DNA from: Minisyncoccota bacterium
GTDB lineage: Bacteria; Patescibacteriota; Minisyncoccia; UBA6257; 2-01-FULL-56-20
Direction of reading: 5' to 3'
Length of the DNA: 64,000 nt
Assembly: GCA_036510525.1 (NCBI GenBank)
Contig: DATCDU010000020.1
Coordinates: 246 to 64,245, forward strand
Every line of letters begins with the position of its first letter. Positions within the stretch are counted from its first letter, which is position 1. The notes under the pieces are model-generated. The model saw only the letters and a program-made list of their open reading frames with translations. It did not search any database and was not told where the DNA came from. Made by a program: the position numbers and the translations under genes. This document shows positions 56,947 to 57,023 of the stretch, piece by piece.

Positions 56947-57023
56947 ATAACATAGCCCAGAAGCTCACTTCGCCTCCAGGCAGATGACCGTTCGGCGAAG
57001 TGAGCTTCTGGGCTATGTTATTT
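56947..57023. repeat. Family-A palindromic element copy 2 (29-bp perfect arms, same 19-nt core)
   Basis: Arms 56947-56975 and 56995-57023; core tccaggcagatgaccgttc at 56976-56994; lies 10 nt upstream of the pilC start codon. Confidence 0.65.

Follow-up and report, generated by a model that had tools for sequence, protein, structure and literature searches.

Just upstream of pilC in the window (the whole 64,000-nt stretch of Minisyncoccota DNA analysed here) lies a hairpin that is probably a displaced member of a clade-restricted family of hairpins of the intrinsic-terminator type. On this reading it arrived as an insertion of about 70 nt, lengthened its stem by copying the local flank, and would act as a weak terminator or insulator at most. 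Comparison with related loci, which we designate by L and a number, establishes that the hairpin belongs to the family, that it was inserted at the pilC locus and that its outer stem comes from the local flank.

The hairpin between pilB and pilC

We refer to the family as family A and to its two members in the window as copies 1 and 2. The features of both are listed here in window coordinates, together with two neighbours of copy 2.

56946 to 57022, no strand assigned: family-A hairpin copy 2, with two perfect 29-bp palindrome arms and a 19-nt loop
56975 to 56993, plus strand and thus antisense to pil transcription: invariant 19-nt core TCCAGGCAGATGACCGTTC
56959 to 57009, no strand assigned: inner unit of copy 2, AGAAGCTCACTTCGCC-core-GGCGAAGTGAGCTTCT, with a 16-bp stem, missing from the empty sites L084 and L026
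56946 to 56958, minus strand: outer arm of copy 2 on the pilC side, ancestral pilC leader/promoter sequence GGGCTATGTTATT (as read on the minus strand)
57010 to 57022, no strand assigned: outer distal arm of copy 2, an inverted copy of the pilC-side flank
57015 to 57028, plus strand: T-rich tail of the inserted unit, ATGTTATTTTCTAA (in L038, ATTCTATTTTCTAA), 3' of the hairpin on the core-sense strand
56944 to 56952, minus strand: extended -10-like box TGTTATTAT, at -15 to -7 of pilC and 6 nt upstream of the ATG
57052 to 57124, minus strand: 73-nt tRNA-like gene, 29 nt upstream (in the pil sense) of copy 2
6972 to 7036, plus strand: family-A copy 1, canonical, with a 23-bp perfect stem and a sense loop, starting at the nrdB stop codon

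An inverted-repeat scan placed the arms of copy 2 at 56946-56974 and 56994-57022 (29 nt, 100% complementary; 34 nt at 94% complementarity if extended). Together with the sequence itself, the scan confirms the perfect 29-bp stem that an earlier note on this DNA had described. The core coordinates of that note (56976-56994) were off by one, and it put 10 nt between the stem and the pilC start and 515 nt between pilB and pilC, for which we measure 8 nt and 514 nt. Its identification of the two genes agrees with Pfam (T2SSE and MshEN for pilB, T2SSF for pilC). The pilC ATG occupies 56935-56937 on the minus strand, with the copy 2 arm spanning -9 to -37 relative to it, and copy 2 is the sole stem-loop between the tRNA-like gene and pilC. 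Folded as RNA, copy 2 reaches -57 to -59 kcal/mol on either strand (z = -11.8 and -12.6 vs. shuffles).

The identical 19-mer occurs in copy 1 at 6995-7013, on another stem. Two cores in the window compare with 0.01 expected by chance, and none of 100 shuffles reached two. The view of copy 2 as a repeat copy with an identical core is thus borne out, both by this second occurrence and by the family found in public scans (see below). The stems differ, as the note stated, and the likeness of the two copies goes beyond the core, since both read TCGCC-core-GGCGA. Copy 1 is also present at L081, with identical flanks.

Copy 2 has the stable GC-rich stem-loop of an intrinsic terminator, as judged by folding, and the hallmark of family A, a 19-nt core closed by GCC/GGC within a longer palindrome. 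Copy 1 and most family-A members also possess a U-tract (the copy 1 stem is followed on its 3' side by TTTTTATTGTT and then by TGGTATAAT), whereas copy 2 has none in either direction: its tail reads AUAUAGAU on the pil strand and, on the opposite strand, UUCUAAUA. Where the A- and T-tracts are expected, some 15 bp away from the loop, it shows only AGAA/TTCT, and a terminator scan did not call it. Because the U-tract fails in both directions, the terminator activity of copy 2 may be negligible.

A family of terminator-shaped hairpins in one narrow clade

To collect family-A copies, we scanned 185,579 species genomes and, in addition, metagenomes for exact matches to the core, which yielded 28 loci and 78 more loci, respectively. 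This genome-wide search, which the earlier note had called for, recovered about 76 distinct hairpin copies, all of them from a single narrow clade of Minisyncoccota, Paceibacteria-like CPR bacteria. Over kilobases, these loci are 70-88% identical to the window at the nucleotide level. In relatives of the window, every core match is a hairpin; stemless matches come from unrelated organisms, in about the number that chance predicts, and viral contigs contained no copy of the core. Copy number is low, at 2 per 64 kb in the window and at least 10 in one MAG. The MAGs carry labels such as Paceibacterota, Parcubacteria or Minisyncoccia. MAGs labelled Saccharibacteria or delta proteobacterium are 77-88% identical to the window at the nucleotide level over kilobases, and thus belong to the same narrow clade despite their labels. 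The labels 'delta proteobacterium' (CAVXGH01) and 'Candidatus Saccharibacteria' (CAZXCH01) look unreliable (loci L005, L012, L015, L016, L022 and L028).

The members share a plan, consisting of an A-tract, about 8 variable bp, TTCGCC, the 19-nt loop, GGCGAA, about 8 variable bp and a T-tract. In 76 unique copies, the stem pairs nearest the loop comprise a nearly invariant GCC/GGC closure, a C-G fourth pair, two pairs that are mostly T-A and eight that are variable, and the A-tract (left) or T-tract (right) begins at position 15 in ~78%. When 71 copies are aligned without gaps, Watson-Crick or G.U pairs fill 94.6% of the pair cells, compared with 62.2% in shuffles, and 476 cells are changed on both sides. 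G.U pairs make up only ~1% of cells, which points to maintenance of the stems at the DNA level. We looked for an excess of G.U pairs as a sign of the RNA strand and found none; on the sense strand, C.A mismatches outnumber G.U pairs. As it stands, the mismatch spectrum offers no argument for RNA-level selection on the stems.

This architecture is the shape of a bidirectional intrinsic (Rho-independent) terminator, in which a GC-rich stem of ~14 bp is bordered by an A-tract and a T-tract and follows a gene or tRNA at a distance of 0-30 nt, often between convergent genes. What is unusual is the large, sequence-invariant loop: intrinsic terminators usually have a short, arbitrary loop, whereas that of family A has 19 nt and does not vary. 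Family A departs from ordinary terminators in two further ways, in that its palindromes run past the U-tract into tRNA ends and stop codons, and in that copy 2 is inverted and has lost its U-tract. Terminator-shaped hairpins that conserve the loop, and not the stem, are undescribed in Rfam and in the literature that we searched. A gathering scan of the whole window against Rfam returned only tRNAs and a SAM riboswitch (RF00162, 14936-15036, minus strand, 58 bits); permissive scans of both hairpin regions gave only generic microRNA-precursor matches far below threshold; and the searched literature contained neither the core sequence nor such elements in CPR bacteria.

Family-A hairpins adjoin the 3' ends of genes and tRNAs, with the loop mostly in the sense orientation. 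Where a gene or tRNA lies upstream within 150 nt of the core, it has the same sense as the loop in 40 of 49 copies. Sense copies adjoining a tRNA 3' end number 15, vs. two or three independent antisense cases, and tandem gene contexts hold 11 sense and 2 antisense copies (all of these counts ignore shared ancestry). Copies only 0.5-3.6 kb apart on one contig face opposite ways (L006, L018, L038 and L106), so orientation follows transcription and not contig direction, and we rejected an orientation set by replication. Within this pattern copy 1 is canonical. Copy 2, with its loop antisense both to the pil genes and to the tRNA-like gene, is an atypical member that falls in the antisense minority.

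Orientation also bears on whether the core is bound as DNA, for example as a REP/BIME-like site for IHF or gyrase, an uptake signal or a recombinase site, with the palindrome as a by-product. The DNA-driven maintenance of the stems (few G.U pairs, stems copied from flanks), the type IV pilus genes of these organisms and the exact sequence retained by inverted loops would all be consistent with such a site. We nevertheless consider it very unlikely, given that orientation tracks transcription, that no core copy outside a hairpin was found in the clade, and that a 19-nt spacer disfavours cruciform extrusion. The density is also far too low for a DNA uptake sequence, which occurs at ~1 copy per kb, within genes as well, and without orientation preference; here there are 2 copies per 64 kb, all copies are intergenic hairpins, and they show a sense bias.

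Several known systems resemble family A in part. The REP/BIME and REPIN elements of proteobacteria are likewise extragenic palindromes at gene 3' ends with presence/absence polymorphism, and are linked to termination and mRNA stabilisation. In REPs, however, it is the stem sequence that is reported to be conserved, along with a GTAG or CGTC tag (PMC3733652). Moreover, REP/REPIN elements come in hundreds of copies with a RAYT transposase, whereas family A has a conserved loop and a low copy number, and its stems differ between loci; we therefore rejected membership in this class. The TIGR stem-loop arrays of CPR bacteria and phages share with family A the variable palindromic stems, the conserved loop motifs and the broad group of organisms. 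TIGR units form tandem arrays beside a Tas gene with a Nop domain, and in their loops CCA and UG motifs enclose two variable spacers of 8-12 nt (PMC12045711). Family-A copies are dispersed singletons with an invariant 19-nt loop, and none of ten neighbouring genes encodes a Nop domain, so a TIGR array was rejected as well. Inspection by eye found the required motifs of hammerhead, K-turn and box C/D RNAs to be absent. A functional analogy, and only that, can be drawn with the stem-loop at the 3' end of histone mRNAs, a terminal hairpin of conserved sequence that is found on many transcripts and read by a dedicated protein, SLBP; that system is eukaryotic and unrelated to family A.

Insertion, stem growth and transcription at the pilC locus

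We compared six orthologous pilB-pilC junctions, which are arranged as follows.

L026: a 27-nt spacer only
L084: upstream promoter, small terminator-like hairpin and 73-nt tRNA-like gene, with no family-A hairpin; the site reads ...AAAATGATATTTT, directly followed by GGGCTGTGTTATTATATAGATATG
L038, L023, L069 and the window: family-A hairpin with identical core
L072: a decayed family-B hairpin in that space

Compared with the empty site in L084, the filled site in L038 has ~70 extra nt, which make up the 16-bp stem, the loop and the T-rich tail (3' on the core-sense strand). We found no terminal inverted repeats and no target-site duplication at these insertion junctions, so the element does not qualify as a MITE. 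The comparison shows that the unit entered between pilC and the tRNA-like gene in the lineage ancestral to L038, L023, L069 and the window. The earlier note had proposed an inserted core at this position. An inserted unit is indeed present, but it consists of the whole hairpin with its T-rich tail (~70 nt) and not of the 19-nt core alone. In none of the compared pilC loci did we find the same stem without the core, the arrangement that the earlier note had associated with a point-mutable loop. Insertion of the core into the loop of an existing terminator is unsupported at the pilC locus, where the empty sites lack the hairpin; it is possible at other places in the clade. Descent of copy 2 from the L042/L018 terminator was dropped, as the similarity of the stems scores 9, while the 95th percentile among all stem pairs is 10.

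Beyond the inner 16 bp, the pilC-side arm is ancestral leader, found in the empty sites, and the outer-arm sequence GGGCTATGTTATT also occurs in relatives without the hairpin. The length of pilC flank drawn into the palindrome is 5 nt in L038, 7 nt in L023, 7 nt in L069 and 13 nt in the window. At 57017-57018 the window reads GT where L038 and L023 read TC; this window-specific change of two bases makes the distal flank the exact complement of the conserved pilC-side flank, and lengthens the palindrome from 21-23 bp to 29 bp. We propose that the palindrome would grow outward by template switching during replication, with the conserved pilC-side flank as template and the distal flank overwritten, to an extent that differs per lineage. 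The two-base change fits such an origin for copy 2 by analogy with template switching elsewhere, for which the creation, repair and extension of hairpin stems are documented (PMC8794818).

Further observations agree with maintenance of the stems at the DNA level. At other loci, palindromes take in stop codons or 3-9 nt of tRNA acceptor/CCA ends. The L055 hairpin has an outer arm that occurs once in the window, hairpin-free, at 41867-41891, and the ordinary small-loop terminators of the clade are long perfect palindromes as well. At the 3' end of tRNA-Pro(ggg), L035 (1560-1626) and L014 (3530-3586) have homologous stems with the 19-nt loop reverse-complemented in L014, a natural loop inversion. 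Inversion of spacers by template switching is documented in a further report (PMC8604942). Quasipalindrome template-switch mutation resembles the changes seen here, in that multi-base changes perfect or extend a stem from its opposite arm and spacers are inverted (PMC8794818; PMC8604942). From this analogy we infer that template switching shapes family-A stems; it would account for the evolution of the stems but not for the conservation of the loop or the role of the element. The loci are unusually clean natural cases of palindrome growth and loop inversion, and are useful for studying the origin of RNA stems.

The insertion lies close to signals for pilC expression. Upstream of 343 ORFs from the window and the related loci, Shine-Dalgarno (SD)-like motifs show no positional peak. 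In the same set, a -10-like hexamer peaks at -12 from the ATG, and TGnTANNNT with a hexamer start from -16 to -11 was observed 29 times vs. 3.1 expected. Absence of an SD together with a -10 box at that distance is the signature of leaderless or near-leaderless mRNAs, and this pattern suggests that such mRNAs are widespread in this CPR clade. At pilC, the box TGTTATTAT is conserved in six orthologous loci, including L026, and sits at the modal leaderless distance (-12). The arm of the hairpin reaches into this box, covering the TGn and bases 1-4 of the hexamer, which places copy 2 upstream of the likely pilC transcription start. With a conserved extended -10 at the leaderless position, pilC mRNA probably starts mostly at or next to the AUG and hence lacks the hairpin.

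These features weaken the proposal of the earlier note that copy 2 occludes the pilC initiation region. In its broader form, the proposal makes copy 2 a cis-regulatory or processing element, the stem of which either hides the start region of translation or is cleaved by RNase III on a transcript running from pilB or from the tRNA-like gene into pilC, and so sets PilC output. The stem ends 8 nt from the AUG and folds to -58.6 kcal/mol on the pil strand, its perfect 29-bp duplex is of sufficient length for an RNase III substrate, and the window lineage has extended it toward the AUG. Yet this clade offers no SD to mask, and the conserved extended -10 implies that most pilC mRNA is made without the hairpin. 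Nor is the element conserved with pilC, as an operator should be: L084, L026 and L072 have the same genes and no family-A hairpin, and its absence from L084, which has the same tRNA-like-to-pilC arrangement, indicates that it is not a conserved pilC control element. The loop, moreover, has the minority antisense orientation, as expected of a displaced family member and not of a purpose-built operator. We thus regard a cis-acting role as unlikely. Transcripts that read through from upstream would carry the hairpin 8 nt from the AUG, whereas the promoter-proximal transcript would not, and occlusion or RNase III processing could take place on the read-through transcripts only.

We favour the reading given at the outset. 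Judging from the six junctions, copy 2 is a recent, inverted insertion beside pilC's own promoter and therefore probably not a dedicated pilC translation switch; a role as translational operator is unlikely. It would adjoin and overlap the extended -10 promoter of pilC, which probably gives a leaderless mRNA, and, if active, it would be a weak bidirectional terminator or an insulator between the upstream RNA unit and pilC. For pilC the outcome is mostly deflating, namely a lineage-specific, displaced family member and a gene that probably has its own leaderless promoter.

The upstream RNA unit has features of its own. A conserved promoter (TTGACT-16-TAGTAT, 57297-57270) drives this non-coding unit of ~230 nt, which is conserved in the window (57040-57300, minus strand), L038, L084, L072 and L069. 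The promoter is followed, in order, by a hairpin, a segment of 14 nt, a second hairpin that resembles a terminator (57184-57214) and the tRNA-like gene (57052-57124). In sequence, the 14-nt segment complements the anticodon loop and the 3' strand of the anticodon stem of this gene, and at six of the pairs both partners have changed in a compensatory way across five genomes. The anticodon of the tRNA-like gene is UGA or CGA; the gene lacks a long variable arm and is flanked by a helix that covaries. A weak tRNA hit (38.6 bits) was the only match of the unit in Rfam. The unit could represent either an sRNA together with its tRNA-like target or one structured leader.

Conservation and turnover of the loop

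The family-A loop is identical at orthologous nrdB, tRNA-Ile and pilC loci despite diverged stems and flanks, and across lineages whose coding DNA is only 72-85% identical. Part of this invariance is a sampling effect, since all family-A copies were found by exact match to the core; only a few diverged loops were seen, as bystanders. At 11 orthologous sites that had not been chosen by their own core match (9 in relatives, 2 in the window), there was no diverged A loop. Instead, the sites carried a different family, a simple loop or no hairpin, in an all-or-none manner.

Other loop types occupy the same gene ends. Loop A alternates with loop E (TCGTGMTAAGAAKAATTC) on similar stems and in the same orientation (L075 vs. 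L073; L067/L094/L025 vs. L064), with family D or a simple GGCAAT loop (L085/L086 vs. L103 and L017), with an unrelated small terminator (L030 vs. L041) and with nothing (L011 vs. window 31374-31392). At the 3' end of tRNA-Ile, family A is found in L022, L026, L038 and L080 and family B in the window, with the outer 15 nt shared between L022 and the window. Loop C (TCCTGAAAGATTAATGTC) has the frame GCC-UCC...AGAU.A...UC-GGC in common with A, and all three of its copies follow tRNAs in the sense orientation. Families C and E share the GCC/GGC closure and sense orientation of A; in D, GACGG/CCGTC closes a loop of 21 nt that pairs with itself. Families C, E and D were found at L045 (12002-12081), L070 (81-150), L061 (1136-1184) and L064 (1102-1159), and also at L073 (1375-1442), L085 (3315-3401) and L103 (494-550). 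The family, in which loop types swap at the same gene end, is of more interest than copy 2 itself.

The invariant loop would most likely be a sequence-specific site, read on the RNA 3' hairpin by a putative trans-acting factor. This is the least certain step of our interpretation, and we infer it only from the conservation of the loop and the sense bias. If the loop is a factor-binding tag, it points to a 3'-end recognition system in genome-reduced CPR bacteria. We also considered pairing of the loop with another RNA, but a ten-mer search of the window and 714 kb of loci gave only scattered matches, consistent with chance, and the idea was rejected for these sequences.

The main rival to recognition by a factor is turnover of a selfish or neutral mobile cassette. 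Template switching, conversion over short homologies or an unknown enzyme would spread hairpins, or only their apical modules, among terminators, where they replace one another; the loop would be kept uniform by recent spread or concerted evolution, and copy 2 would have no function. Replacement of loop families and inversion of the loop fit such turnover as well as they fit function. Other observations also agree with it, including presence/absence at several loci (with empty window sites at 31374-31392 and 41867-41891), different loops on homologous stems (A in L075 and L067/L094, E in L073 and L064, respectively), the exchange of A and B within the same outer 15 nt at tRNA-Ile, and the all-or-none pattern at the 11 orthologous sites. 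Against a cassette, the insertion junctions lack terminal inverted repeats and target-site duplication, no transposase is encoded among ten flanking genes, and copies are few (2 in the 64 kb of the window, 10 or more in one MAG). In addition, the sense bias requires selection or an oriented mechanism, and the loop has stayed identical across lineages with 72-85% identical coding DNA. On this evidence the cassette is possible, but we would not favour it.

A more speculative possibility, which we regard as doubtful, is that loops A, C and E, the ~60-nt module of family B and family D are interchangeable address tags on RNA 3'-end hairpins. They would be read by cognate factors or spread by a new element that colonises hairpin tips, and the stems would be rebuilt by template switching. 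If so, the inverted copy 2 would expose the exact complement of a tag that is present on dozens of tRNA and mRNA 3' ends, and loop-loop pairing could occur between those RNAs and transcripts from upstream of pilC.

The family-B hairpins of the window (57340-57455 and 60742-60868) have perfect stems of 29 and 33 bp and a ~60-nt apical module, with no match in Rfam. The module combines a conserved, covarying sub-hairpin (GGAG-stem-GAAG-stem-GAG, plus strand) with a variable second hairpin. One of the two, whose start coincides with the stop codon of pilB, is missing from L023 and L038 and has left a remnant in L084; the other takes in the last 8 nt of tRNA-Ile and the CCA.

At L011 (1206-1270) and L101 (787-870), the upstream ORF runs through the 5' arm of the hairpin and stops at a TGA within the core (...TCG CCT CCA GGC AGA TGA). 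The orthologous gene in the window ends ...CCG TAA at 31374-31392, where there is no hairpin. In L101 the stem is decaying, and the 5' arm evolves like coding sequence.
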